Assembly: GCA_964636235.1 (NCBI GenBank)
Contig: CAZWQV010000004.1
Location: forward strand, 3,257 to 67,256
DNA: 64,000 nt
Reading direction: 5' to 3'
Origin: an uncultured Thermoplasmatales archaeon
Lineage (GTDB): Archaea; Thermoplasmatota; E2; DHVEG-1
Shown: piece after piece, positions 3,111 to 49,961 of the stretch
How positions within the stretch are numbered: position 1 is the stretch's first letter
Layout: each line of letters starts with the position of its first letter
Program-made: the position numbers and the translations under genes
The notes under the pieces: generated by a model
What the model was told of the DNA's origin: nothing
Databases searched by the model: none
What the model saw: only the letters and a program-made list of their open reading frames with translations

Positions 3111-6100
3111 ATGGTGATGGAATATCATAGTGAATATAAGATTTTAAAAATTACAACCGTTTTAATAATTGTTTGTCTTATACTTCTCAGTTCTTTTCAA
3201 ATACAAATTATTGATAATGCACATGCAACTCGATATATTTCAACTGATAACTCAGGGAGAAATGCTGTAATTCTTACTAATAATGGATTTGGCGGTAAAT
3301 CGAATCTATTGACCTGTGGAGAAGTGATAAGTTTATTAGTGGTAAACAATAGTTTACAACCCTACCAGAATTATACCGTTAAAGTATGGAATGGGACTGA
3401 ATGGATTTCCTGTTATATTATTCAAAATACTTCAACATCTGATAAATATGGTGATTTATCTATCCAATTTCATGTTCCAGGGTTCCAAGAACTACATAAG
3501 CATCCAATGAAAGATAATGGGTTTGGTAATGAAAAGTATCATGGATTATGGAATATTTCATTATGGAACTCTGGGTCTAATGGTTCCCAGATATGGAATG
3601 GATTGAATATTACAATTGCTATTGGGAACTTATATCAAGTTTATCTTACTTGGGAAGAAGATGATCCATATAAGAATCATTTTGACTCTCTATTATATAA
3701 TCATCAAGAATCTTTTTACGTACATGTAAGAAATTGGACTGGGAACTTAGGTTGGCAAAATATCTACAATGATGAACATGGAATAGGGGCTTGGAATTTA
3801 TCTGTTTTTTCACCAGTTGGAGGAAATCCGATTCAGTTCATATCAAATATTCATGCAAATAATCAATTTATAACTCTTACTACAAATAATAGTTATCTTC
3901 CGTCCAATCCAGATCAATTTGAATATATGTATACTGTTAATGTGAGCAAATATAATTCAGGCTCTTCTTTTCATTCCAATATTACTCTTCCTATAAAATT
4001 AAATGTAACTGCTTCATATCCAAGTAATGCAACTTGGGGTGATACACTTGATATAAATGGTTATGTGTTTGATGGTAACGATACTGGGATAAGCGGATAT
4101 ATGATTCAATTATATGCGCCTACAGCAAGGGGGGTGAATGGTGGATATGTAACTGCTTTCTCCATTGAGACCAATTCTACAGGGGGATATTCTATGGTCA
4201 TAGAAACAGGGCCTGATACTGGATATGCAGCGGGTATCTGGTATCTTGGAACATATAATAGTGGAGCAATTCCACCTAGAATCAACGAATCAGATCACCC
4301 TCCGTACATCTCTAGTTTTATCCCTTATCATTCTTTTACCTTGAACACAAAAGATGACGTTAACCTTTCAATCATAAATACAGATAATATCATATCAAAT
4401 TTTACGCAAACCATTAATGTATCAGTTTATAACTCTTCTTGGATGTGGAGTGGATTAAATGATTCATATAACGAGTATAAACATATGATATTTCAGGTAA
4501 CAGGTTTGGAAAGTTGGGATGGTAACCAGCGATATAATAGAGAAGATATTGTTCCCGTGAATGCAAAACGTACAAAAGTTGATACCAATGAAGAATATGC
4601 GTATTATGAATTCAACTGGACATTTAATGAAACTGGCAATGTTACATTATGGGCAAGTTGGCCAGGTAATTTAACAGATTATCAAGGTGAGGACTCATCA
4701 TATAGTAATACCTATAATGAATCCGTACAAATGTTGGCAAATATTACTGGATTTACATCTTTTATTGTTGTTACACCAAATGAGATGAATTTAGAAGTTT
4801 CTGATAATTTCTTACCAAGAGTGCTGGTCTCTGAATCAGAAGAAAATTGGAAAAATACAAGTCAGATAATTACACTGAATGTATATGGTAATTCATCTGA
4901 AAGAAAGATGAATGCAACAATTACTATTTCTGGTTGTGGTCTTGATATGATAATTAAAGAGGATGATACTGTTGCCAGCAATGAATATCTAATCGCAAGA
5001 AGTACTGGCCAATATACTCTTAAGGTCCAACCAAAAATAGCTGGAACTTTAACGATTACTGCGACAAATAAAACTAAGGGAACAAGTGTTACCAAGGATT
5101 TTTCCATAAAAGGTTTAGTTGGTAGTGTTACAACATCAAAAGGAGATGATATTAGTATTACGGTTGGAACTACTGAGACTATTACAGTAACGATAACAAA
5201 TGGTAACTTTGCTGCGGTACATCTAACGTATTATGATTTATCATGGTCAAATCCAAATAGTTTGAATATTACAATTGGTGATGGTACATCTGGTGCAGGT
5301 GCAAATGGCCGATTTACATTTGTCCCAAATCTGGGTGAATTAGGAAATGTTGGCTTTATAGTAGTTGCGGCAAAAGCCGGTTTAAATTATTATATGTATG
5401 AAATAATAAAAATTGAACCGATTTATGATCTAACAATTGAGATGATTAGTCCCATTTCGGTAAATGAATCATTTACGGTTGGTATGCAAGTAGATATCAT
5501 GCTTCAACTTCTCGATGATGAAGGCAATCCAGTGATTGAAGATATGCCACATGTAATTGGTAAATATGTAGATAACAGACACAATGAACACTATCCTCTT
5601 CAAACTATTACATTTAGTCAAATGGGGCCATATTGGGTTGCATCAGATGTGTTTTTTTGGAAGTCAGGTACATTTATTGTTCGTGGTTATAATGCAAGTA
5701 TGGGAATGAGACATGAGGGACTGCATTCTATAAAAGTTACACAAGCAAGAATTACTTATGATCCTCCTACTACCACTGCGGGTATTGGATTAAAAAATCT
5801 TACCATATCGGTTTCAGGTAACGATGCCAATGGAAATCCATTACCTGAAGGTACTCAGTTATATTTTTGGTGTAAGGATTCAGAAGATGCCGCAGTTGGA
5901 GGGAACAGTTCTAATACAAATGCAGTAAATTTTAAACAAGGATATGAACAAATAAGTTTAGATGCCGATGGGAAAGGATTTTTTATTTTAGAGGAGGTTG
6001 GAGATAATAGAACTGTCATTAATGCAAGCATACAAGATAATAATCCATCTGAAGGAAATGATACGTTTGGGTATTTTACTATTGATTATCCTGATTTTAT

Positions 6101-7966: not shown

Positions 7967-8594
7967 TTATTCTTCTTCATGGTCAAAATATAGATATCCC
8001 ATCTTAAAAAGAATAATAAAAGCGATAATTGCTGCTGCGATGATACCTGCAATGATTATAATCCATGGTATTTCACCTACGTTTTCTGTACCAGATGATA
8101 CTCCAATAGCAAATGTTGAAAGTCCGGGAGTTATTGCATCATAGTAGGTATATGTTTCATCCTTACTGGTAGCGGTTGTGGATAATGTTTGCCAGTTATT
8201 ATTATGATATCTTAGAAGAACAATATTTTTTTGATCAATATTATGATTTTCTAACCATTCATTTTCTACTTTTTATGAAAGAGTAAGACTCTTTAAATCT
8301 TCATCCGCGACATTTGTTGATATATCTATGTACATGTATACTGTGTTTGTTGGTTCTGAAATTCCCCCTGGTTTGGTATCATAGTTTTCATAATGATAAT
8401 ATTTGTCATCAACATCCTACGTTGGACTTCCATGTGCATATGCGGTCATTTTTATTGCAGTCGTTCCATCATCTTCTGCACTAACTGAAGGTAAAAAACG
8501 GCAGAAAATATTAAAATTGTTATCATAATCGCTAGAAAGAATGATATCAGCTTCCTTTTAATTTTAGAGATGTATTTGATTGAATTCCCATCAT
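7967..8594 (-). pseudogene. Decayed surface protein gene (signal peptide + PGF-pre-PGF-like domain + C-terminal TM/acidic tail)
   Basis: Minus strand: AGGAGG then ATGATG start. A conceptual translation needs two frameshifts at A- and T-homopolymers, and contains in-frame TAG (8417-8419) and TAA stops. The reconstructed protein has a signal peptide (…AVFLPSVSA|EDD), a …YTYYDAITPGLSTFAIGV motif and a C-terminal TM. Confidence 0.5.
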
Positions 8595-8745
8595 CCTCGC
8601 CTCCTATTACAGATATAAAAATTCTTATATATATCTATCAGTTTTTAAGGCATAAAAAACAATATAGAATTACTTAAATATATTTCGATATTATGGGAAA
8701 TTTTTAATATAATATAGATAATATTAATAAATTAATCCTATAAAT

Positions 8746-10005
8746 TTATTTTTTACATTCAAAATATGATGTTGATCCTCTAGGGGAGACAAGAATAGAT
8801 GCGTTTTTTCCCGTAATACTGTATGCTTTCCTCAATGCATCCTCTGGAGTTTTAGCTGGAATAAAACCAAGTTTATCCTTAACAAAACCATCTTGTAATT
8901 CAGATACGAGGATGACGGTATTTTTTTCAATTGCTTGTCTATGATAAAATGCCTTATGAGCACCTAATTTGAAATTCTTTTCAAGTAATACTTGGATTTC
9001 AGCAGCTGAAGAATGATTTTCAAGCCAGGTTGCATAGAGATCATTTCCTATTCCTTCGGGGCATTCTGCTATAAGGATAACCACGCCCTTTTCTCTTACT
9101 ATTTGAGATGCGGTATAGAGTGCTTTTAATGATTGATATAAATTTATGTCATGGGGGCTTCCATCTGCTGCAGAAATTACAATATCTGGTTTCTGACACA
9201 GATTCATTTTAAACATCTCATCAACAAGGGCAATTCCTTTTTCCATCACAAGTTTTGGATCACCGGCCCATAAACCAACGATATCATGATGTGAATTCAA
9301 TACCGCACTTAATGCAAAATCGCATCCAGCCATATCCATGGCCTCAATCATTTCCTTACTTATTGGATTGGTATCATATATGCCCATGACTGCATCTGAG
9401 TGAAACATCATTGCATGATTTGTTTGAATACTTTCTGCTGAAGAAACGCCAGGTAACACACTTTTCCGTGTTCCTCCATACCCCGCATAATAATGATATT
9501 CAATATCTCCAACAAGAATTTTAATATCTGCTTGGATATATTCCTTCAATACACAAATTTTGTTTCCATATGATGAAGTTCCTAAAGAAAGATATGCTCC
9601 ATTTTTTACATCATTACTGATAACCGCATAATCATTTACAATTTCTTTACCAAGGATTTGAATCATCTTTTCATAATCTGGTGGTGTATGAGTTCCAGTT
9701 GCAATGATAATGGTAATATCAGTTTTGTTGATACCACATTCAATTAATTCATTCAACAAAGGTGGGAGTAACTGTTTTGTTGGTGCTGGTCGAGTATAAT
9801 CATCAACCACAATAACGACTTTCTGACCTTTAGAAACAACTGTTGATAATGGACCAACCCCCAGTGGATTTTTTATAACAGAGGTGATAAATTTATTTAT
9901 ATTTTCTATTGCTGGAGATTCTTTTGGATGTGCAACAATAACACTATCATTATCATTTAAAAAAAGCGGAAGATGCGATTTTCCATAGGGAAGTGCAATT
10001 TCCAT
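8746..10005 (-). CDS. LarA-family protein (lactate racemase-like, nickel-pincer cofactor-dependent racemase/epimerase superfamily)
   Basis: Collinear with LarA: DDYTRPAP, ATGTHTPP, HYYAGYGGTRKSVLPG (Lys for NPN attachment), and the GCDF motif. Confidence 0.65.
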   Translation of the reverse strand: MEIALPYGKSHLPLFLNDNDSVIVAHPKESPAIENINKFITSVIKNPLGVGPLSTVVSKGQKVVIVVDDYTRPAPTKQLLPPLLNELIECGINKTDITIIIATGTHTPPDYEKMIQILGKEIVNDYAVISNDVKNGAYLSLGTSSYGNKICVLKEYIQADIKILVGDIEYHYYAGYGGTRKSVLPGVSSAESIQTNHAMMFHSDAVMGIYDTNPISKEMIEAMDMAGCDFALSAVLNSHHDIVGLWAGDPKLVMEKGIALVDEMFKMNLCQKPDIVISAADGSPHDINLYQSLKALYTASQIVREKGVVILIAECPEGIGNDLYATWLENHSSAAEIQVLLEKNFKLGAHKAFYHRQAIEKNTVILVSELQDGFVKDKLGFIPAKTPEDALRKAYSITGKNASILVSPRGSTSYFECKK

Positions 10006-14708: not shown

Positions 14709-16232
14709 ATGACGGTTATATTAAACGGATCTGGACTAACTATTGAAAAACTTGTAAAAATAGCTCGTTTTAAAGAAAAAGTTAAACTTGATGATCAAGC
14801 CATAAAAAGAATAATTAAATGTCGGAAACTAGTTGAAAAAAAGATAGCTGATAAAGAAATAATGTACGGAATCAATACAGGTATAGGAGAATTTTCCGAG
14901 ATTGTATTAAACGATGATCAGATTAAACAATTTCAAAAATATCTTATTTATAACCATGCAGCGGGTATTGGTGATCCAGCACCTATTGAATACATTCGTG
15001 GAGCGATGGCTGCTCGAATAAATGTACATGCACATGGTCAATCAGGAAATCGTATTGAAATCACCAAAACATTAGTAGAAATGTTGAATAAAGATGTCGT
15101 TCCATATGTTTGTCAAAAAGGAAGTGTGGGTGCTTGTGGCGATCTTGCACCTATGTCCCAGATAGCACTTTTACTGCTTGGTGAAGGAAAAGCGTATTAT
15201 GACGGTGAATTACTACCCGGAAAAAAAGCCATGGAGAAGGCGGGCATTATGATTCCCGGCCTTCATGCACGGGATGGTCTTGCAGTAATAAATGGATGTA
15301 ATGTATTAACAGCGATGAGTGCAATTTTTTTATATGATGCAAATCGATTTTTAAAACAGGCTGAAATCGCCGCTGCTATGAGTCTTGAAGCGTTAAAAGC
15401 GAATATGAAGCCATATACCCCAAAACTTCATGAGGCTCGAGGATTTCCAGGGGCTATTCGAAGTGCAAATGCTATCTGTAAATTAATAACAGGTGGAGAT
15501 TTACAGAAAGAAAAGATACAATGTAAGGTGCAGGATGCCTATAGCATGCGTTCTACTCCGCAAGTTATTGGTGCTGCTCATGATGGCATTCGATGGGCAA
15601 AAGAGCAAATAGAAATTGAACTAAATGGCGTAGGTGATAATCCTGTTTTTTTCCCGGAAGAGAAGTTACAATTATCTGGTGCTAATTTCCAAGGAACTCC
15701 AGTTGGTTTACCGATGGATATGGCAGGCACAGCGATTACCATGGTTTGTATATTAAGTGAAAGACGGATGAATCGGTTGAATAATCCAGCCTTAAATGTT
15801 GGATTGCCTGCCTTTTTAACTAAAGGGGCTGGAATGTTTTCAGGTTTAATGCTTAGCCAATATACTGCTGATCATCTTATTGTTGAACAAAAACTTCTCT
15901 CGTCACCTGCATCAATTCAGTCCATTCCGGCTGCTGCAGATCAAGAGGATTTTGTATCAATGGCTATGAATACTGCCATTAAAAATATGCAGATATTGGA
16001 AAATGCTTATGGAATATTAGGAATTGAATTTATGGCAGCAGCTCAAGCATTAGATTTTAGAGAGTATCATTTCGGCAAAGGTGTACATACCGCGAAAGAA
16101 ATTGTCAGGTCCTATGTAGATTTTCTTGATGAGGATCGTCCATTATATCCTGATCATACAAAAATGAGAGAACTTGTAAAATCATGCGAGATCCTAGAAG
16201 CCGTAGAGAAAAAAATCGGCCCATTAGAATGA
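14709..16232 (+). CDS. hutH: Histidine ammonia-lyase (MIO-dependent aromatic amino acid ammonia-lyase family)
   Basis: Collinear with HAL (GSVGAxGDLAP, NGCN, etc.). GGGGAG SD. 507 aa. The MIO triad reads Ala142-Cys143-Gly144. Confidence 0.8.
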   Translation: MTVILNGSGLTIEKLVKIARFKEKVKLDDQAIKRIIKCRKLVEKKIADKEIMYGINTGIGEFSEIVLNDDQIKQFQKYLIYNHAAGIGDPAPIEYIRGAMAARINVHAHGQSGNRIEITKTLVEMLNKDVVPYVCQKGSVGACGDLAPMSQIALLLLGEGKAYYDGELLPGKKAMEKAGIMIPGLHARDGLAVINGCNVLTAMSAIFLYDANRFLKQAEIAAAMSLEALKANMKPYTPKLHEARGFPGAIRSANAICKLITGGDLQKEKIQCKVQDAYSMRSTPQVIGAAHDGIRWAKEQIEIELNGVGDNPVFFPEEKLQLSGANFQGTPVGLPMDMAGTAITMVCILSERRMNRLNNPALNVGLPAFLTKGAGMFSGLMLSQYTADHLIVEQKLLSSPASIQSIPAAADQEDFVSMAMNTAIKNMQILENAYGILGIEFMAAAQALDFREYHFGKGVHTAKEIVRSYVDFLDEDRPLYPDHTKMRELVKSCEILEAVEKKIGPLE

Positions 16233-26050: not shown

Positions 26051-27697
26051 TTATAACATAGGCATATGTAGATCTGATTTTTTCACTACATCAATAGCTT
26101 CTTTATATCCTGCATCCGCATGTCTAATAACACCTATTCCAGGGTCTGTCTTAAATACTCTTTTTATACGTTCATCTGTTTCTTTCGTTCCATCACAAAC
26201 TACTACCATCCCTGCATGAGTAGACAGGCCAATACCAACTCCTCCACCATTGTGGATTTGGACATTATCAGCGCCTGCTGCACAATTTAATAAGGCATTT
26301 AATAACGGCCAATCAGCAATAGTATCGCTTCCATCCTTCATCCGTTCGGTTTCTCTATAGGGGGATGCAACACTGCCAGTATCTAAATGATCCCTTGTAA
26401 TAGCAATTGGGCCAATTTCACCATGCCTAATCAATTTATTAATTCCAAGCGCAAATTTTTCTCGTTCCTCATATCCAAGCCAACAAACTCGTGCAGGCAG
26501 CCCCTCCCATGGAAGATGTTTTTCGGCCAAATTAATCCAATTTGATAAAATAGTATCCATTGGAAACATATTCATTACTAGTCTATCTGTTTTCAGGATA
26601 TCCTCTGGATTTCCAGTTAATGAAAGCCATCTAAAAGGTCCGCGCCCGACACAAAGCATGGGGCGTACATAAGCGGGAACAAAACCGGGGTAATTAAAAG
26701 CATTTTTAAGTCCTGCTTTTTGTGCTTGGCCTCTTAAATTATTACCATAATCAAATACAATACTTCCCTTTTTCTGAAAATCAATCATTGCTTGACAGTG
26801 GATTTTCATACTTTTCAGTGATTCTTTCTTATATGCTTTTGGATCAGATGTACGTAATGCTATTGCTTTATCAAGACTATTGCCATAATATCCTGCAGGA
26901 ACATAACCGTTTAGTTCGTCATGAGCAGAGGTTTGATCAGTTACAATATCAGGCTGGAATCCTTCCTTAACCAATTGTGGAAGCACATCTGCACAATTTC
27001 CTAACAGTCCAATTGCTATTGCATTTCCACGTTGTTTTTCTTTTTCAGCCATATCAATTGCTTCATGAATATCTGCTATCTTTTTATCACAAAATCCTGC
27101 TTTTATTCTCCTATCTATCCGTTTTTCATCACATTCAACATCGATACAAATACCACCGGCCATTTTCACTGCTAATGGTTGAGCACCTCCCATACCACCC
27201 ATACCACCAGTTAAAACAATTTTTCCTTTCAGGTTCTTATTAAAATGTTTTTTTGCTAGAGCTGAAAATGTCTCATATGTTCCTTGAATTATGCCCTGTG
27301 TTCCAATATAACACCATGAACCTGCAGTCATCTGACCGTACATAGTTAGCCCTAATTTTTCCAGCTCATTAAACTTATCCCAATTACTCCAATGAGGAAC
27401 AATATTTGCATTTGCCATTAGTACTCTTGGCGAATTTTCCCACGTTCTAAAAACACCAACTGGCTTGCCTGATTGAATAATAAGCGTTTCATCATTTTCT
27501 AATGACTGTAATGTTTGAACAATTTTATCATAACATTTCCAATTTCTTGCTGCCTTTCCCGTTCCACCATATATAATTAAATCTTCTGGTAATTCAGCAT
27601 TTTCTAGATTATTTTCAAGCATTCGAAGAATCGCTTCTTGTTTCCAACCTTTACAGCGTAATGTTGTTCCTCTTGCAGCTTTTATTTGTTTCCCCAT
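26051..27697 (-). CDS. hutU: Urocanate hydratase
   Basis: 548 aa. Urocanase N-terminus (RGTTLRCKGWKQEA...) and a GGMGGMGGAQP NAD-binding glycine-rich loop. Confidence 0.8.
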   Translation of the reverse strand: MGKQIKAARGTTLRCKGWKQEAILRMLENNLENAELPEDLIIYGGTGKAARNWKCYDKIVQTLQSLENDETLIIQSGKPVGVFRTWENSPRVLMANANIVPHWSNWDKFNELEKLGLTMYGQMTAGSWCYIGTQGIIQGTYETFSALAKKHFNKNLKGKIVLTGGMGGMGGAQPLAVKMAGGICIDVECDEKRIDRRIKAGFCDKKIADIHEAIDMAEKEKQRGNAIAIGLLGNCADVLPQLVKEGFQPDIVTDQTSAHDELNGYVPAGYYGNSLDKAIALRTSDPKAYKKESLKSMKIHCQAMIDFQKKGSIVFDYGNNLRGQAQKAGLKNAFNYPGFVPAYVRPMLCVGRGPFRWLSLTGNPEDILKTDRLVMNMFPMDTILSNWINLAEKHLPWEGLPARVCWLGYEEREKFALGINKLIRHGEIGPIAITRDHLDTGSVASPYRETERMKDGSDTIADWPLLNALLNCAAGADNVQIHNGGGVGIGLSTHAGMVVVCDGTKETDERIKRVFKTDPGIGVIRHADAGYKEAIDVVKKSDLHMPML

Positions 27698-40789: not shown

Positions 40790-41713
40790 ATGGAATTGGG
40801 GGAGAATTTAGATATTTCTACCAACAACAAGCGCACATTGGCTGCTATTCCTTGCTTCAATGAGGCAACCTCAATTGGGAGTGTTATACTTAAGGCAAAA
40901 CGCTATGTCGATGAAGTGCTTGTTGTTGATGATGGAAGTACAGACGACTCATCAGAAATTGCCCTTTATGCAGGTGCAAGTGTTTTAAAACACGAAAAAA
41001 ATAGAGGTTATGGAGCAGTTATTCAGAGTTGTTTTAAATATGCTCGTGAACATAATTTTGATGTAATGGCAATTATTGATGGTGATGGACAACATGAAGC
41101 TGATGAATTACGAACGGTTATGAAACCGGTACTTGATAACAATATTGATATATCCATTGGGTCTCGATTTGTTGAAAATAATGGGAAAAATATCCCTAAA
41201 TATAGGCGTTTTGGAATAAATGTATTAACCAAAATAACCAATGCAGGTTCGAGTGCTTCTCATAAAATATCCGATGGGCAGAGTGGATTCCGGGCATATT
41301 CAAAAAGAGCGATTGGTACTCTAAATCCGAAGGATAATGATATGGGAGTTTCTGCTGAAATTATTATGCAAGGAAGAAAAAAACAATTATCATATGCAGA
41401 GGTACCAATTTCATGTCGGTATGATCTTAATGGTTCAACCAAAAATCCCGTTGGTCATGGGATTGGAGTCATATTGTCAATCGTAAAATATATGGAAGTA
41501 GAACATTCATTGTTATTTTTTGGTGTTCCTGGATTAATATTGTTTGCTCTTGGTTTGCTTGTGGGTTTCAATGTATATTCGAGCTATTATGGAACCGGTG
41601 AACTTGCTATTGGAAATGCTTTGATTACTATTGTTCTTATTATCGTGGGATCTCTTTCAGGAATGACAGGATTGGTTTTACATGCTGTTATTAATGCAAA
41701 CCGCAGATCATAA
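40790..41713 (+). CDS. Dolichyl-phosphate hexose synthase-like GT2 glycosyltransferase (AglD/AglJ/DPM1-like) with C-terminal TM anchor
   Basis: AIPCFNEATSIG...VVDDGSTDDS, a DGDGQH (DxD) motif, and a C-terminal TM hairpin. Confidence 0.7.
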   Translation: MELGENLDISTNNKRTLAAIPCFNEATSIGSVILKAKRYVDEVLVVDDGSTDDSSEIALYAGASVLKHEKNRGYGAVIQSCFKYAREHNFDVMAIIDGDGQHEADELRTVMKPVLDNNIDISIGSRFVENNGKNIPKYRRFGINVLTKITNAGSSASHKISDGQSGFRAYSKRAIGTLNPKDNDMGVSAEIIMQGRKKQLSYAEVPISCRYDLNGSTKNPVGHGIGVILSIVKYMEVEHSLLFFGVPGLILFALGLLVGFNVYSSYYGTGELAIGNALITIVLIIVGSLSGMTGLVLHAVINANRRS

Positions 41714-42728
41714 GAATAATAACTGTTCCAGTTTTATTTCAGTTATCGTGGCGATTAAAAATGAAGAAGATTATATTGAAAAATGTTTAGATTCATTGGT
41801 CAATCAAACAATATCAAAAGACGTGTATAGAATAATGATTGTTGATGGTGGATCAACAGACAATACGATAAACCTTATTACACCTTATATTAAAAAATAT
41901 CCTGATTTCATTACTCTTTTTCATAACCCAAAACAATGGCAATCTTGTGGAAGAAATATTGCTATTGCTCATGATGATAAGAGCAATCTCATTGCTTATA
42001 TTGATGGTCATTGTATTGCTGATGCTTATTGGCTTGAAAATTTATATCATAGTTATATGGAAAGCAAATCTGATAGTCTAGCTGGTATTGGATCGATTCA
42101 TTGCAGCCCAGATGATGAAACAAAAATTGGAAAAGCAATAGATCAAGTATTCTTAACTCCTCTTGGGGGAATGGGTACCTCTTATCAACCTCAAAAAGAA
42201 AAAAAATCTGTTATGACTGCACCTTTTGTATTATATTCAAAAAAAGCTGTTCAACAAGTTGGCGGCTATGATGAAGATATGAAAATAGGTGAAGATTTTA
42301 CATTAAATTATAAATTAAAGGAAAAGAAATTTTCATTATTCATTGAACCAAAAGCTATTGTTTATTATTATAAAAAACAATCATTTATCGCCTTTTTTAA
42401 ACAAATGTTAAATTATGGATATGCAAAGGCAATTATTGCAAAAAAATATCCATCGTCGATTTCTATATTTCAATATATTCCTAGTTTATTTTTATTAGGT
42501 TTATTTGTAAATGTCCTGTTAGTATTATTTTTACCAATAGTAATTTTTTTTATTGGTGCTGTAGTACTATGTTATCTTATTCTTATTTTATCATTCACTC
42601 TCCTAACAACTCTTAGAAAGCAAGAAGTATTCTATTGTTATTTTATGCCGATTATTTTTCTGTTACAACATATTGGTTTTAGTATTGGATTTCTCATTGG
42701 CCTATTTAAAAAAGGGTGGGCTCAATGA
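41682..42728 (+). CDS. GT2 family glycosyltransferase with C-terminal TM domain
   Basis: ISVIVAIKNEEDYIEKCLDSLVNQT, a DGGSTDNT motif, and C-terminal hydrophobic helices. Confidence 0.6.
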   Translation: MLLLMQTADHKNNNCSSFISVIVAIKNEEDYIEKCLDSLVNQTISKDVYRIMIVDGGSTDNTINLITPYIKKYPDFITLFHNPKQWQSCGRNIAIAHDDKSNLIAYIDGHCIADAYWLENLYHSYMESKSDSLAGIGSIHCSPDDETKIGKAIDQVFLTPLGGMGTSYQPQKEKKSVMTAPFVLYSKKAVQQVGGYDEDMKIGEDFTLNYKLKEKKFSLFIEPKAIVYYYKKQSFIAFFKQMLNYGYAKAIIAKKYPSSISIFQYIPSLFLLGLFVNVLLVLFLPIVIFFIGAVVLCYLILILSFTLLTTLRKQEVFYCYFMPIIFLLQHIGFSIGFLIGLFKKGWAQ

Positions 42729-43858
42729 ACATCTGTATAGTCTCGTTTATAATTTCAAAAGCATTTCAGTCACCACTTTCTAATCTTTTATCTATTATAG
42801 ATCAAAAGGAAAATCATATCACTCTCATTTGTAGTTCAATTGAGAAAATTAATCAAACTGAGCATATGCAAGATATAAAATGGATTGAAAAACCATTTCA
42901 AAAACCTACAAATGTACTTCTATATGGATTCCGTTATATGTTATTACAAATACAAATATGTCTTTATCTTTTAAAACAGGCAAAAAACAATGACTGTTTC
43001 CTTTTCTTTATGGAGGGAGTGGGCGTTCTTCCAATGATACTTGTTAAAATATTACATAAACCTCTGATTTGGATGCTTCCTTCAAGTATTCTTATGGTGC
43101 AGTCTTCAAAAAAAACGATTATTTATCAGGTTATGAAAAATTTACAATCGTTCTGTGCTGGTTTATCAACCGTTCTGATTTTATATTCCCGTAATTTAAT
43201 TCGGCAATGGAATCTTGAAAAATTTGAAAAAAAAGTACATATTGCCCATGAACATTTCCTTGATTTCTCTCATTTCAAAAATTTGAAACCCTATGAATCC
43301 CGTTCACAAGTTATTGGTCATATCGGTCGATTAAGTGATGAAAAAGGAACATTGCAATTTCTAAATGCTATCCCTTCTATTATTAAAAATGATGCAGATT
43401 GTACTTTTTTTATTGGAGGCGACGGAGTATTATCTGAGACTGTAAAACAATTTATTGAACAAAATAGATTACAAGATAAAATAAGGTACGGTGGATGGAT
43501 TTCACGTAAAGACCTACCTGAGATATTAAGTAGTCTTAAACTTCTTGTAATACCATCAAAGACCGAAGGACTTCCCAATATGATGATTGAGGCAATGGCT
43601 TGTGGAACCCCTGTTTTAGCTACATCTGTTGGATCGATTCCAGATATAATCAAAGATGAAGATACAGGATTTATCCTTTCAGATATATCCCCTGATAGAA
43701 TAAAAAGTGATATTAAACGTGCTTTATCCCATTCAAAAATAAATCAGATATCAAAAAAGTCCTCTGATATCATTCAACAACAATTTAATCGAAACCAAAC
43801 AGTTTACACGTTTCAACAGATATTGTCAATTATAAAAAATTCATATTGTCAAGATTAG
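42716..43858 (+). CDS. GT4 family glycosyltransferase (GT-B)
   Basis: C-terminal EGLPNMMIEAMACGTPVLATSVGSIPDII, the GT4/GT1 E-x7-E region. Confidence 0.7.
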   Translation: MGSMNICIVSFIISKAFQSPLSNLLSIIDQKENHITLICSSIEKINQTEHMQDIKWIEKPFQKPTNVLLYGFRYMLLQIQICLYLLKQAKNNDCFLFFMEGVGVLPMILVKILHKPLIWMLPSSILMVQSSKKTIIYQVMKNLQSFCAGLSTVLILYSRNLIRQWNLEKFEKKVHIAHEHFLDFSHFKNLKPYESRSQVIGHIGRLSDEKGTLQFLNAIPSIIKNDADCTFFIGGDGVLSETVKQFIEQNRLQDKIRYGGWISRKDLPEILSSLKLLVIPSKTEGLPNMMIEAMACGTPVLATSVGSIPDIIKDEDTGFILSDISPDRIKSDIKRALSHSKINQISKKSSDIIQQQFNRNQTVYTFQQILSIIKNSYCQD

Positions 43859-43870
43859 GAGGCTATCAAT

Positions 43871-44998
43871 ATTAGAATAATACTCGGTACTCAGTTTCCA
43901 GATGTTAACGAGCAAATTTGGGGCGGTGTACAAGCAGTAAGTGTAAATTTATATCATGGATTTAACCAATTTAAAAATGATGATGATTTTCTTGTTGTTA
44001 GTGGTAGTAAAAAGAATCAGGGATATTCCAAATCGTTAAATGATGTGTATTTTATAAAAAAACCATGGTTTAAATTTGGAAGCATTTTTTTGTCAACCTA
44101 TCCTTATCGAATTAATAATTTTCTTAAAACAAATTCTTTTGATATAATAAATGCTCATACCTTAGATTTTGCCTCTGTTCATAAACAGTATAAAAAAAAG
44201 TTAATTTTCACACCACATGGTTTTAATTGGATAGAACAGAAATATATTCATCCACTGAAAAAGCCATTTTGGAACTTATTCTATGTAAGAAGATTCTTTT
44301 CCATTCTAAGACATGTTCAGTATTTGATTTCAATTAACCCATGTAGCACTGAAGAATTCGAACAATTTACTAATGCTACAATTTTTGATATTCCAAATCC
44401 AGTTTCTGATTCATTTTTTGATATTTCCCAAAAACCTTCTGTAAATTCATTTCTATGGATGGGTGTTATTTCAAAAATGAAAAATTTATATACTTTACTT
44501 AAAGCTCTAGTGATTATAAAAGAAAAGAAAAAAGATTTTACCTTGTATGTTGCAGGAAAAATCGATGATATTGAATATTACCGGCAATTAACATTATTTA
44601 TAGCGCAAAAGGGACTACAAGACCATGTGGTATTTCTAGGCGTTATTAACAATCATAGAAAAATTGAATATTTTTCAAAAATGTCCTTTTTTATTTTAAC
44701 ATCTTTTAACGAGCATGCTCCAATGGTTATATCAGAATCATTTGCAGCTTCTCGACCAGTGATCGCATCTAATGTTGGAGGCATTCCTTATATGATAGAG
44801 GAAAATAAAACTGGTTTTCTTGTTGACCCCAATAATGAACAGCAGATTGCTGATAAAATATTATTTTTATTAGAAAATACCTCAATAGCAGAAAAAATGG
44901 GATTTAATGCAAGGCAAGTTGCTTTAAAACAAAATGTATTATCACTTGTTATTGAAAGATATAGACGAGCTTATAGTTATGTTTATGAAAATCTATAG
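43871..44998 (+). CDS. GT4 family glycosyltransferase (GT-B); start inferred at a non-canonical ATT
   Basis: The conserved GT4 N-domain (RIILGTQFPDVNEQIWGGVQ...) lies upstream of the first in-frame ATG/GTG/TTG (44045). GGAGG at 43858-43862 sits exactly 8 nt before ATT 43871. C-domain has EHAPMVISESFAASRPVIASNVGGIPYMI. Confidence 0.55.
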   Translation: MRIILGTQFPDVNEQIWGGVQAVSVNLYHGFNQFKNDDDFLVVSGSKKNQGYSKSLNDVYFIKKPWFKFGSIFLSTYPYRINNFLKTNSFDIINAHTLDFASVHKQYKKKLIFTPHGFNWIEQKYIHPLKKPFWNLFYVRRFFSILRHVQYLISINPCSTEEFEQFTNATIFDIPNPVSDSFFDISQKPSVNSFLWMGVISKMKNLYTLLKALVIIKEKKKDFTLYVAGKIDDIEYYRQLTLFIAQKGLQDHVVFLGVINNHRKIEYFSKMSFFILTSFNEHAPMVISESFAASRPVIASNVGGIPYMIEENKTGFLVDPNNEQQIADKILFLLENTSIAEKMGFNARQVALKQNVLSLVIERYRRAYSYVYENL

Positions 44999-45032: not shown

Positions 45033-46868
45033 ATGGAATTCATTCAATGGCAACAAGTAAGAAAAATCCAGCTGATTATAGGCTATCTGTTATTACTTTT
45101 TGCTAGTATTATTATTTTTGAAACTTCCAAGGCGGCGGGATATGAAATATCAATTTATGCTGCTTTCCCGTTATCATTCTGGTTTTGCTTTATTATAAGT
45201 TTGGGGATTGGTTTTTTAACTATCTTTCAGGAATTAATTTTGAAAAGAAGAACAAAATTATGGATCTATGGGTTCTTGATTGTTTTTTTTGGCAATTTTC
45301 TTTTTCTTTTTCTCCCATTATTTCGTGGTTATTGTTTTGCTGGTGGAGCAAATACAGATTTATTTTCACATGTAGGTTTTATTAGAGAAATCATTCAAAC
45401 AGGGCATTTCTCTTCTATGAATTTTTATCCCTCGATTCATATTATGTCATATGTTTCATCTGGACTTTTGAATTTTTCATTTATTGAAACTCTCTGGTTT
45501 TTTCCTGTTTTTTTTTCAATGCTTTATACTATTGGAATGGTATTGCTTGCGTTTGTTTTTTCAGAGAAAAGAAAACAATTCCTTTTAATTTCACTTTTAT
45601 CTTTGATATTAATTTTTGATGGGTTTCATTTTTCATTTCAACCTTCATTTTTTTCTTTCATACTTCTTCCCGTATTGATGTATCTTTATCAAAAAAGAAG
45701 ATTTTTCCATGGTAAGATTGAGATGACAGTGCTCATTGTTGTCATGAGCTTTTTCATCGTCTTTTTTCATCCTATGACCACAATATTTGCCATTATAATA
45801 TTTTTAATTTTTTATTTAGCAGAAGTTATATTGAAATTATTGAAGCCTTATTTACATAATTATGTTGATGTTATCACATGGGATAAAACCACTAATATTG
45901 TTATCATATTAGTAGTGGCATTCGCGACTTGGTATACCTCATTTGGAGAAGGATTATCAGATATAAAAACAATCATTCAACTCCTCTTAAATAAACCTGA
46001 ATGGGAGATAACAAAAGAATTCATTATGCCGCTTATTAATGCTCAATTGTCAACAGTTCAAACAGTACAATTATTTATTCTTCGGTATGGTACTATATTG
46101 ATATATGGTTTTATTTCTCTATTGGGCTTTTTATATGTAATAAAGAAATTTATTTTCTCTCGGGAGATAAAAGAACTTGAATTTTCTTATAGTCTTGAAT
46201 TAGTGGTGCTATTTATCATTGGCCTTGGTATGATGACGGGTTATTTTTTAGTAAATGATCCGATTAGAATATTACGTTATTTTTTAATGATTGCAACGGT
46301 TTTCAATGGAATTGTGTTATATCTCATTTTTAGAAGAAATATTGCTGCTAATATTCACTCGATTAGACATTCGATACTAGTGGTTCTATCTATTATTCTT
46401 ATTTTATTTTCCAGTTTTGTATGCATTGGTAATGTTTATCCTTCTCCTATGATTTGGCAGCCAAATTATGAATTTACATATATGAACTATGCTGGTTCTG
46501 AATGGATGGTAAATTATAGAGATTTAAATGTACCTATTGGTCAGGATGTTGGAAGTAATATTCTTAGAATGGAATATTATTTTTATGGTGTCGAAGAGGG
46601 AAATATGCGAATGTTTTTTCCACAAAGAGGTATTCCTGCTCACTTTGGTTATAATTCGAATATATCGTTGGAATCTTATTATAATTACAATGATACTTAC
46701 ATGGTTATTACAGAAAATGGTAAACAAGCCTTTAAGGCCTTTCCATCTTCGGTTCAAGAAATGGTTCATCAATATTCATTAAGCGATTTTGATCTGTTGA
46801 ATAGAAATACTATTGTTGATAAGTTATATGAAAATGGGGAAGTAGAATGCTGGTTATTAAATATATGA
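45033..46868 (+). CDS. Polytopic membrane protein, possible GT-C-type glycosyltransferase/polymerase
   Basis: About 12-13 TM helices followed by a soluble C-terminal domain of about 150 aa. Sits inside the glycan cluster. No WWDYG (AglB) motif. Confidence 0.35.
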   Translation: MEFIQWQQVRKIQLIIGYLLLLFASIIIFETSKAAGYEISIYAAFPLSFWFCFIISLGIGFLTIFQELILKRRTKLWIYGFLIVFFGNFLFLFLPLFRGYCFAGGANTDLFSHVGFIREIIQTGHFSSMNFYPSIHIMSYVSSGLLNFSFIETLWFFPVFFSMLYTIGMVLLAFVFSEKRKQFLLISLLSLILIFDGFHFSFQPSFFSFILLPVLMYLYQKRRFFHGKIEMTVLIVVMSFFIVFFHPMTTIFAIIIFLIFYLAEVILKLLKPYLHNYVDVITWDKTTNIVIILVVAFATWYTSFGEGLSDIKTIIQLLLNKPEWEITKEFIMPLINAQLSTVQTVQLFILRYGTILIYGFISLLGFLYVIKKFIFSREIKELEFSYSLELVVLFIIGLGMMTGYFLVNDPIRILRYFLMIATVFNGIVLYLIFRRNIAANIHSIRHSILVVLSIILILFSSFVCIGNVYPSPMIWQPNYEFTYMNYAGSEWMVNYRDLNVPIGQDVGSNILRMEYYFYGVEEGNMRMFFPQRGIPAHFGYNSNISLESYYNYNDTYMVITENGKQAFKAFPSSVQEMVHQYSLSDFDLLNRNTIVDKLYENGEVECWLLNI

Positions 46869-48698: not shown

Positions 48699-48935
48699 AT
48701 TTTTTCCAATCTTTGAATAAATCGTTAGATTGGATATAAAGTGGAATCTATTATGCTTTACTCCTTTTAATATAAATGCAAAATAAAAAAATATATGTTT
48801 AAGGATTTGATTTAAAAAAATTTGTAAAAATTATTTCAATAAATATTATAATATATCAAGTATTTCAGGTATAAATAATAAAAAAATTAATTGAGGGAAC
48901 TAAAGGTTAACAATATGCATTTGGGGGAACTATGA

Positions 48936-49961
48936 TTGACGAATCTTTCTGTTTCTATCCTTGAATCGATTCATGATGCTGATAAAAATCAATGGAATAA
49001 TCTTATCAATCAATCAAATGTAGGTTCAATATTTCAAAGATACGAATGGTTAAACGTTTTGGAGAAAGGATTACAATTAAAACCAAAACATATCTTGATA
49101 TCGAAAGATAATAATCCATTAGGTATTTTCCCCCATTTTATTATCAATGAACAAAAAGAACCATTTCAAAAATTATGTTCTGTTTCCCCCGGATTTGGAG
49201 GTCCAGTTATTGGAAAAGGCGAGGATGCGATTCTACCTTTAATGTTCCAACAAATCCCTAAAATATGTAAAGGTAAAATAGCACTTCACACCATGATTTT
49301 AAACAATTTGAATTATGTAAAATATGGTAAATTTCTTTTCAAATCTGGTTATCAGATGTCGCTTGATGGCCTTCGTTTTTATATAAATCTAAAAAATTCT
49401 TATGATGAACTTCTTAGCAATATGGATCATCATAAAAGAAAGGAGTTTAAAAAAATAAAGAAAACATTATATTCTGTAATTGAGCAAAAAAATAGTATAG
49501 ATTTTATTTCCAATTTCTATAAGGATTATACTGATTCATTAGAAAAAAATAATGTCTCTTCTTATCCATTTATCTTCTTTGAAACACTGTTAAAAGAAAT
49601 GAAAGATAATGTAAAAATATTTACTGCAATTGTCGATGATGTTGCCATTGGATCTGTTCTATGTATTCTTGATAATGAAAAAAATGTGATTCATGGATTT
49701 TTTTCAGCGATTCCTAGTAAATATTTGCATTTAAAACCATGGATTATGCTTCATGATTTTATTGTCCAATGGGGAAAAGATAAATCATTTCAATTCTATG
49801 ATCTCGGTGAAACACCTGCAGATTTTCTTGATTCAATATTCAAATATAAACAGGGGTTTGGCGGTTCCATCCATCCAATAATGTTGTGGGAAAAAAATTA
49901 CTCATTTATAAGATGGAATATATTTAAATCAGGTAGATATATATATCGTAAGTTATCTTGA
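48936..49961 (+). CDS. FemAB/CelD-like GNAT (Acetyltransf_6 family) protein; TTG start
   Basis: TTG at 48936 preceded by a GGGGGA SD. N-terminus SILESIHDADKNQWNNL...IFQRYEWLNV, typical of this family. Confidence 0.45.
   Translation: MTNLSVSILESIHDADKNQWNNLINQSNVGSIFQRYEWLNVLEKGLQLKPKHILISKDNNPLGIFPHFIINEQKEPFQKLCSVSPGFGGPVIGKGEDAILPLMFQQIPKICKGKIALHTMILNNLNYVKYGKFLFKSGYQMSLDGLRFYINLKNSYDELLSNMDHHKRKEFKKIKKTLYSVIEQKNSIDFISNFYKDYTDSLEKNNVSSYPFIFFETLLKEMKDNVKIFTAIVDDVAIGSVLCILDNEKNVIHGFFSAIPSKYLHLKPWIMLHDFIVQWGKDKSFQFYDLGETPADFLDSIFKYKQGFGGSIHPIMLWEKNYSFIRWNIFKSGRYIYRKLS

Follow-up and report, generated by a model that had tools for sequence, protein, structure and literature searches.

Where does a gene begin when the conserved first part of its protein is encoded by DNA that offers none of the three start codons considered by gene callers? 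This question is raised by the second of two adjacent GT4 glycosyltransferase genes on contig CAZWQV010000004.1 (assembly GCA_964636235.1) of an uncultured Thermoplasmatales archaeon, of which a stretch of 64,000 nucleotides (nt; positions 3,257 to 67,256, forward strand), hereafter called the window, was analyzed. In the frame of this downstream GT4 gene, the first ATG, GTG, or TTG is a GTG at position 44045 of the window, corresponding to residue 59 of the protein; further upstream, an ATT codon at 43871 follows a Shine–Dalgarno (SD)-like GGAGG. The gene is predicted to encode a complete GT4 glycosyltransferase of 375 residues, and it is close to certain that its coding sequence spans 43871-44998 and that the 58 residues ahead of the GTG are part of the enzyme. 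As to how translation starts, we favor, with a probability of roughly 60 %, a probably weak, SD-guided initiation at AUU 43871 that is likely linked to translation termination 12 nt upstream.

All 62 in-frame codons between the TAG of the upstream GT4 gene and the GTG (43859-44044) were checked and none of them is ATG, GTG, or TTG, so that the lack of a canonical start described in the initial annotation holds. Taken by itself, this gap is only mildly unusual, as a start-free run of 62 codons is expected by chance in ~5 % of cases according to a composition estimate (~0.047 canonical starts per codon at 31 % GC). The argument for an ATT start hence draws its strength from the alignment of homologues and from the SD sequence, and not from the gap. 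A window-wide scan for other long start-free N-terminal stretches returned one further case (7967-8272, minus strand), which belongs to a decayed pseudogene, and no second gene with an ATT start.

The first line of evidence comes from a search over 5.8 billion proteins, from which 120 homologues were listed. The exact downstream GT4 protein is present there only as a call of 317 amino acids (aa; P0001 and the cluster members P0121 and P0122), that is, every public copy is 58 residues short and lacks the core of the N-terminal domain. A set of 18 homologues with 40-58 % identity, nearly all of them 372-382 aa long, covers 99-100 % of the ATT-started query. Met1 of most of these proteins aligns exactly on the Ile encoded by ATT 43871 (alignment A1, 19 sequences), a few homologues start one to ten residues before this position, and none starts near residue 59. 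The GT4 domain accordingly does not begin at the GTG, and the assignment of the 58 residues to a conserved GT4 N-domain, originally made from the letters alone, is borne out by this alignment as well as by Pfam and an AlphaFold model. Translation of the extension would be expected to yield the peptide MRIILGTQFPDVNEQIWGGVQAVSVNLYHGFNQFK.

With Pfam, the ATT-started protein scores 32.2 bits for the N-domain family Glyco_transf_4 (cut-off 28.5), with profile position 1 at residue 17, whereas the GTG-started 317-aa form reaches 27.6 bits, which is below the cut-off, and matches only from profile position 56. A family profile, aligned from its position 1, begins at residues 1-3 in solved WaaB and at residue 5 or 21 in PimA entries. 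The C-terminal Glycos_transf_1 domain of the downstream GT4 is recognized with 125.4 bits (cut-off 26.4), and no NCBIfam equivalog reaches its cut-off for this protein.

The AlphaFold model of the 375-aa protein, built on 31 sequences, has a mean predicted local distance difference test score (pLDDT) of 91.7 and a predicted template-modeling score (pTM) of 0.91. Its N-terminal Rossmann domain opens with strand 1 (residues 2-7), followed by a Gly-Gly loop (residues 18-19) just before helix 1 (20-33), strand 2 (39-46), and strand 3 (59-63). In a 31-sequence alignment, G19 is invariant and G18 nearly so, E281 and E289 are invariant and thus retain the EX7E motif, and every invariant column of the family is kept in the window protein. 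The model is a full GT-B fold, and Foldseek matched it to solved GT4 enzymes (6eji, 7qsg, 3c4q, and BshA; TM scores 0.78-0.81, E-values down to 4e-21). Like PglH/WlaC (6eji), MshA (3c4q), BshA (5d00), and PimA (2gej), the predicted enzyme shows two Rossmann domains in GT-B arrangement, in which a Gly-rich loop comes after the N-terminal strand and the C-domain carries a pair of invariant Glu at an interval of eight residues. Sequence identity to these solved enzymes is only 13-20 %.

These data bear directly on the reading that GTG 44045 is the true start and that the 317-aa protein is the functional product. It is the first canonical start in frame and the choice of the gene callers, and yet we consider this reading highly improbable. 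With a start at residue 59, the Rossmann core would lack its Gly-Gly loop as well as strands 1 and 2 and helix 1, and the Pfam N-domain match falls below the cut-off. Moreover, the 58 upstream codons are as well conserved as the rest of the gene, which would be inexplicable if they were untranslated: comparison with the only close relative, a sister species whose phenylalanyl-tRNA synthetase beta subunit (PheRS-beta) is 79 % identical to that of the window, gives 59 % identity for residues 1-58 and 60 % for the remainder. An SD sequence was looked for upstream of GTG 44045 and none was found. The public 317-aa calls are thus judged to be artefacts, produced by gene callers restricted to ATG, GTG, and TTG.

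The second line of evidence is the ribosome-binding site (RBS). The GGAGG indeed sits 8 nt ahead of ATT 43871, and the same motif at the same spacing precedes ATG 3111, ATG 28329, and ATG 33860, as had been pointed out before. Within the window, GGAGG at 8 nt represents the strongest SD class at the commonest spacing. The pentamer occurs 53 times in 128 kb (both strands counted); the frequency of GGAGG exactly 8 nt before a given position is 4.1e-4, and that of any SD-like pentamer 6-10 nt before a given position 1.3 %. Two distant homologue loci carry a normal start at the same place, preceded by a comparable signal at an identical distance (GGAG-8 nt-ATG in L004 and GAGGTG-8 nt-ATG in L005). 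Within the window, a FemAB/GNAT-like gene (48936-49961) has GGGGG, 8 nt, and a TTG start (48923-48938), which implies that a pure run of G can act as SD at this spacing and with a weak start codon.

The position of the SD sequence also bears on the question of which near-cognate codon might be used. Three others, ATC 43865, ATA 43877, and ATA 43880, are in frame and within reach of the GGAGG, and AUA and AUC are similar to AUU in initiation efficiency in E. coli (10.1101/063800). Initiation at one of them is nevertheless improbable: they lie 2, 14, and 17 nt from the GGAGG, whereas genes of the window with a strong SD use 8 nt, and only the ATT aligns with Met1 of the homologues.

The third line of evidence concerns the distance to the upstream gene. 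In Haloferax volcanii, termination-reinitiation is still 40-60 % efficient over a distance of 13-14 nt, but no longer takes place at 22-23 nt (PMC10666635). By this measure, the ATT, 12 nt from the upstream GT4 stop, falls within a coupling range of ~14 nt (PMC10666635), and the GTG, 186 nt from the stop, is too far away for coupling. A GTG start would also leave a gap of these 186 nt in a gene string in which neighbors otherwise overlap or stand 12-34 nt apart. We propose for AUU 43871 that the GGAGG would position the small ribosomal subunit on the AUU, that ribosomes ending the upstream GT4 could also reinitiate there, and that initiator tRNA would read the codon as Met. Output would probably lie far below the level of an AUG, so that the AUU might by itself attenuate the second GT4 with respect to the first. 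AUU initiation behind the GGAGG, as suggested in the initial annotation, is in this way supported by the SD spacing, the lack of a canonical start, and additionally by the homologue Met1; the actual use of AUU, the contribution of coupling, and attenuated expression are inferred.

The two GT4 genes are in frame with each other, with only the TAG and four sense codons between them. Read-through of this stop, which had been put forward as another alternative, would, by pyrrolysine or a suppressor, fuse them into a two-enzyme protein of ~757 aa. This reading is disfavored and appears very improbable. Among the 50 open reading frames (ORFs) of at least 100 aa in the window, TAG terminates 11, as compared to 29 for TAA and 10 for TGA; TAG is more frequent than TGA and thus neither avoided nor reassigned. 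The orthologous pair in the sister species is separated by TAA and not by TAG, and the upstream GT4 ends where its sister ortholog, likewise of 377 aa, ends. Furthermore, there is no double GT4 of ~750 aa among the 120 homologues listed, which are mostly ~330-430 aa long, and the aligned homologues start with Met at the ATT position. A change of the genetic code was ruled out as well, as all three stop codons are in use.

The translation apparatus in question is archaeal. PheRS-beta of the window is an archaeal protein with best named relatives in Thermoplasmatales/Thermoplasmatota metagenome-assembled genomes (63-70 % identity), and the nearest genome matches of the downstream GT4 are from Thermoplasmatota or uncultured archaea, from which it follows that initiation has to be considered in terms of aIF1, aIF1A, and aIF2.

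The junction is not a peculiarity of one assembly. The arrangement TAG-GGAGG-8 nt-ATT recurs unchanged in five other independent assemblies (L001, L002, L025, L026, and L027), that is, two Logan runs and three JGI metagenomes from different samples that are 99.5-99.9 % identical to the window, which rules out a sequencing or assembly error. A search for an indel that would restore an ATG was likewise carried out, and no assembly contains such an indel or any variant with this effect. In all six assemblies the downstream GT4 ORF runs uninterrupted over 375 codons with neither frameshifts nor internal stops. Strain differences within it amount to only two, one synonymous and one changing Val to Gly, at a population divergence of 0.1-0.5 %. 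A separate peculiarity is seen in L027, where eight clustered substitutions to A at window positions 44666-44676 convert EYFS into KKKK, changing residues only; this run of A seems to have arisen artificially, through assembly or a homopolymer, and not to be genuine variation.

Between the near-identical strains and the more distant homologues, the sister species is the only point of comparison. The protein search for intermediate relatives of the downstream GT4 yielded none between 100 % and 55 % identity, a degenerate N-terminal DNA pattern (ATK MGN ATH ...) run over metagenome contigs returned only the sister contig, and a scan of genome contigs found only relatives of ≤44 % identity. Counted from the aligned ATT, the window and sister proteins both have 375 aa and align without indels at 59.5 % identity. 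The sister junction reads TAA ATC AAT ATG GGG GTT TTA ATA ATT CGT. It thus has an ATT at the codon aligned to the window ATT and GGGGG exactly 8 nt before it, together with an ATG five codons earlier. In the gapless alignment of the two junctions (TAGGAGGCTATCAATATT in the window, ATGGGGGTTTTAATAATT in the sister species), the G-run is conserved in position and the window TAG corresponds to the sister ATG. As a side observation, one sister copy (L003 3001-4080, JGI 3300083231) encodes 359 aa instead of 380 aa due to an in-frame deletion of 21 N-domain residues (NWIEKQYISPMKKPLWNLFYV); the GT4 ortholog is full length in the sister contigs L028 and L029.

Two histories may account for this pattern. 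In the favored one, the ATT with its SD would already have been the start in the common ancestor, and the sister ATG would be fortuitous or a later rescue. This is suggested by the conservation of an SD-like run at a functional distance from the ATT, and by the sister ATG being embedded in its own SD with nothing SD-like ahead of it, which would make it an odd start. Alternatively, the ancestor may have started at the upstream ATG, which the window lineage would have lost when the upstream stop moved onto this triplet. Relative-rate tests with six outgroups gave 33-39 unique changes on the window branch vs. 26-40 on the sister branch (all p >0.2; for example, 38 vs. 34, p=0.72), with no excess on the window branch in the first 58 residues either. 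Although such a test is blind to very recent inactivation, the downstream GT4 appears, as judged from these substitution counts, to have undergone no pseudogene-like evolution over an appreciable part of the time since the species split.

The main rival to AUU initiation is a version of the N-terminally disabled gene that was already considered in the initial annotation. According to it, an ancestral canonical start (an ATG at the ATT codon or the ATG five codons upstream) was lost, and the gene would now be silent or nearly so, an incipient pseudogene that is fixed in the population and too young for other lesions. This scenario is weakened by the present data and we regard it as unlikely, albeit as a serious contender. 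It fits the lack of a canonical start in the stretch, the ATG carried by all more distant homologues at the ATT codon, and the sister ATG in the place of the window TAG. Several further points likewise weigh against AUU initiation: archaeal aIF1 rejects AUU in vitro (PMC4705826), an AUU yields 1-2 % of AUG in E. coli (10.1101/063800), with an ATG five codons upstream, the sister ATT may simply encode an internal Ile, the strains vary too little for selection to be demonstrated (two differences give no power to show it as ongoing by the population ratio of nonsynonymous to synonymous changes, dN/dS), and at least one decayed pseudogene (7967-8604) indicates that gene decay occurs in this genome. 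On the other hand, a lost start does not readily explain an ORF that is intact over 375 codons in six assemblies, the retention of all invariant and catalytic residues, and a window branch that shows no rate acceleration relative to the sister. Likewise, a top-class SD at the commonest spacing and a G-run conserved in position in both species would be unexpected had the ATT never been a start. Even a lost ATG that left an ATT behind a strong SD would be expected to leak some translation, and for this reason AUU initiation and start loss shade into each other in practice.

A more far-reaching variant of AUU initiation holds that the AUU start is an ancient, maintained feature that predates the split of window and sister species, both of which retained it along with an SD at 8 nt. 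It would serve to limit the second GT4 to a constant small fraction of the first, or to make it sensitive to the level of aIF1. We regard this variant as unlikely but worth considering.

Several known systems provide a frame of reference. In E. faecalis, mutagenesis proved that ebpA starts at an ATT and not at the annotated ATG 120 bp downstream, and that the ATT attenuates expression (PMC4447247). The two cases agree in that the conserved part of the protein begins ahead of the annotated canonical start (the window GTG being 174 bp downstream of the ATT), and in that the ATT start belongs to a cell-surface-related function, the rare codon lowering expression in the case of ebpA. However, ebpA is a bacterial gene, subject to IF3-based proofreading and proven by mutagenesis and reporter fusions, whereas the window gene is archaeal and its ATT start is deduced from the sequence. 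The E. coli genes infC and pcnB also start at AUU (10.1101/063800, PMC4705826) and likewise exemplify a near-cognate AUU behind an SD as the native, weakly initiating start of a conserved protein. Here, the AUU of infC acts as an autoregulatory sensor of the level of IF3, and no such feedback logic is evident for the window glycosyltransferase; moreover, fidelity is controlled by IF3 in E. coli and by aIF1 in archaea.

Within the archaea, the Asgard gene AtubA was re-annotated to an ATT start based on a missing first strand, homologue alignment, and RBS distance (PMC13394414). As in the window, an archaeal gene had been deposited too short and its first beta strand was restored by an upstream ATT with an RBS at a plausible distance. 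AtubA belongs to another protein family and phylum than the window GT4, and its ATT start was equally deduced and not demonstrated in the native host. Ribosome profiling in H. volcanii classified ~30 % of putative alternative initiation sites as near-cognate, which were set aside unvalidated (PMC7261190). The GT4 pair furthermore resembles coupled archaeal gene pairs (PMC6728339, PMC10666635) in that the two genes are co-oriented, 12 nt apart, and joined by an SD that overlaps the upstream stop; the coupled pairs studied so far use canonical starts, whereas the window pair has an ATT.

An AUU start is not a new mechanism, as it is known from bacteria and has been proposed for the Asgard tubulin gene. 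To our knowledge, no long-lived, naturally selected near-cognate start has been experimentally established in Archaea, and a maintained AUU start at this locus would, if true, represent such a case. Archaeal start-codon fidelity is set by aIF1, which is thought to exclude AUU. An AUU-started archaeal gene with an SD and a coupling distance of 12 nt would thus be a natural substrate for testing how strict aIF1 proofreading is in vivo, and could also reveal whether reinitiating ribosomes are more permissive. The finding corrects an annotation and offers a candidate natural substrate for such fidelity tests; since gene callers consider only ATG, GTG, and TTG, the same annotation error will recur wherever a near-cognate start exists.

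Table 1. Features of the GT4 junction and of the surrounding gene string (positions in the window)
Feature	Position	Strand	Remarks
GT2 glycosyltransferase, first (GT2a)	40790-41713	+	Pfam Glycos_transf_2
GT2 glycosyltransferase, second (GT2b)	41682-42728	+	Pfam Glycos_transf_2
Upstream GT4 glycosyltransferase	42725-43858	+	377 aa; Pfam Glycos_transf_1, 7.5e-32; stop TAG 43856-43858
GGAGG, Shine–Dalgarno-like	43858-43862	+	first G shared with the upstream TAG (its last base)
ATT, putative initiation codon of the downstream GT4	43871-43873	+	8 nt after GGAGG; aligned to homologue Met1
Downstream GT4 glycosyltransferase, full length	43871-44998	+	375 codons plus stop TAG 44996-44998
N-terminal extension without canonical start	43871-44044	+	58 codons, ATT to GTG
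GTG, start in public calls	44045-44047	+	317-aa calls; residue 59, start of strand 3
611-aa protein, next in string	45033-46868	+	starts 34 nt past the downstream GT4 stop

The downstream GT4 sits in an archaeal surface-glycan cluster (Table 1) that has the same gene order in the sister species. The two GT2 genes stand at the head of this string of closely spaced genes, all on one strand. The overlap between GT2a and GT2b amounts to 32 nt (41682-41713), and the TGA of GT2b and the ATG of the upstream GT4 share a 4-nt ATGA (42725-42728); the operon looks translationally coupled throughout. The sister ortholog of the upstream GT4 ends in TAA. Identities to the sister species are 61 % for GT2b, 57 % for the upstream GT4, and 77 % for the 611-aa protein, which is thus the most conserved gene of the cluster (as compared to 57-61 % for the glycosyltransferases); this protein has no confident match in Pfam or NCBIfam. 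With 59.5 %, the downstream GT4 is conserved to the same degree as the two glycosyltransferases next to it (57-61 %).

Rfam and tRNA scans detected only a tRNA-Gln and no RNA element at the GT4-GT4 junction. A scan for bacterial promoters and terminators gave counts not above those in shuffled sequence and is uninformative for an archaeal organism. At ~28 nt ahead of the GGAGG, still inside the last part of the upstream GT4 gene, TTATAAAAAA (43830-43839) resembles an archaeal TATA box, a type of string that is common in AT-rich genomes. If used as such, it would give rise to a transcript that begins at or inside the SD.

Elsewhere in the window, a mechanically called epimerase ORF starting at TTG 36402 is over-extended, and the public calls use ATG 36456, with a GGAGG (36445) 6 nt upstream. 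The decayed gene mentioned above (7967-8604, minus strand) is that of a surface protein: a GGAGG (8604-8600) is followed by ATG 8594, the frame of which stops after 15 codons. The remainder runs on in another frame with an in-frame TAG (8419-8417) and TAA (8275-8273), and a match of its C-terminal part to the PGF-pre-PGF domain (TIGR04213, 5e-23) extends past the TAA; a transmembrane helix forms the end of this part. The gene is most simply regarded as a pseudogene. Finally, genes for a lactate racemase-like LarA (8746-10005), a histidine/aromatic ammonia-lyase (14709-16232), and a urocanase (26051-27697) in the same window suggest a heterotrophic, amino-acid-degrading member of the Thermoplasmatota and not a methanogen.

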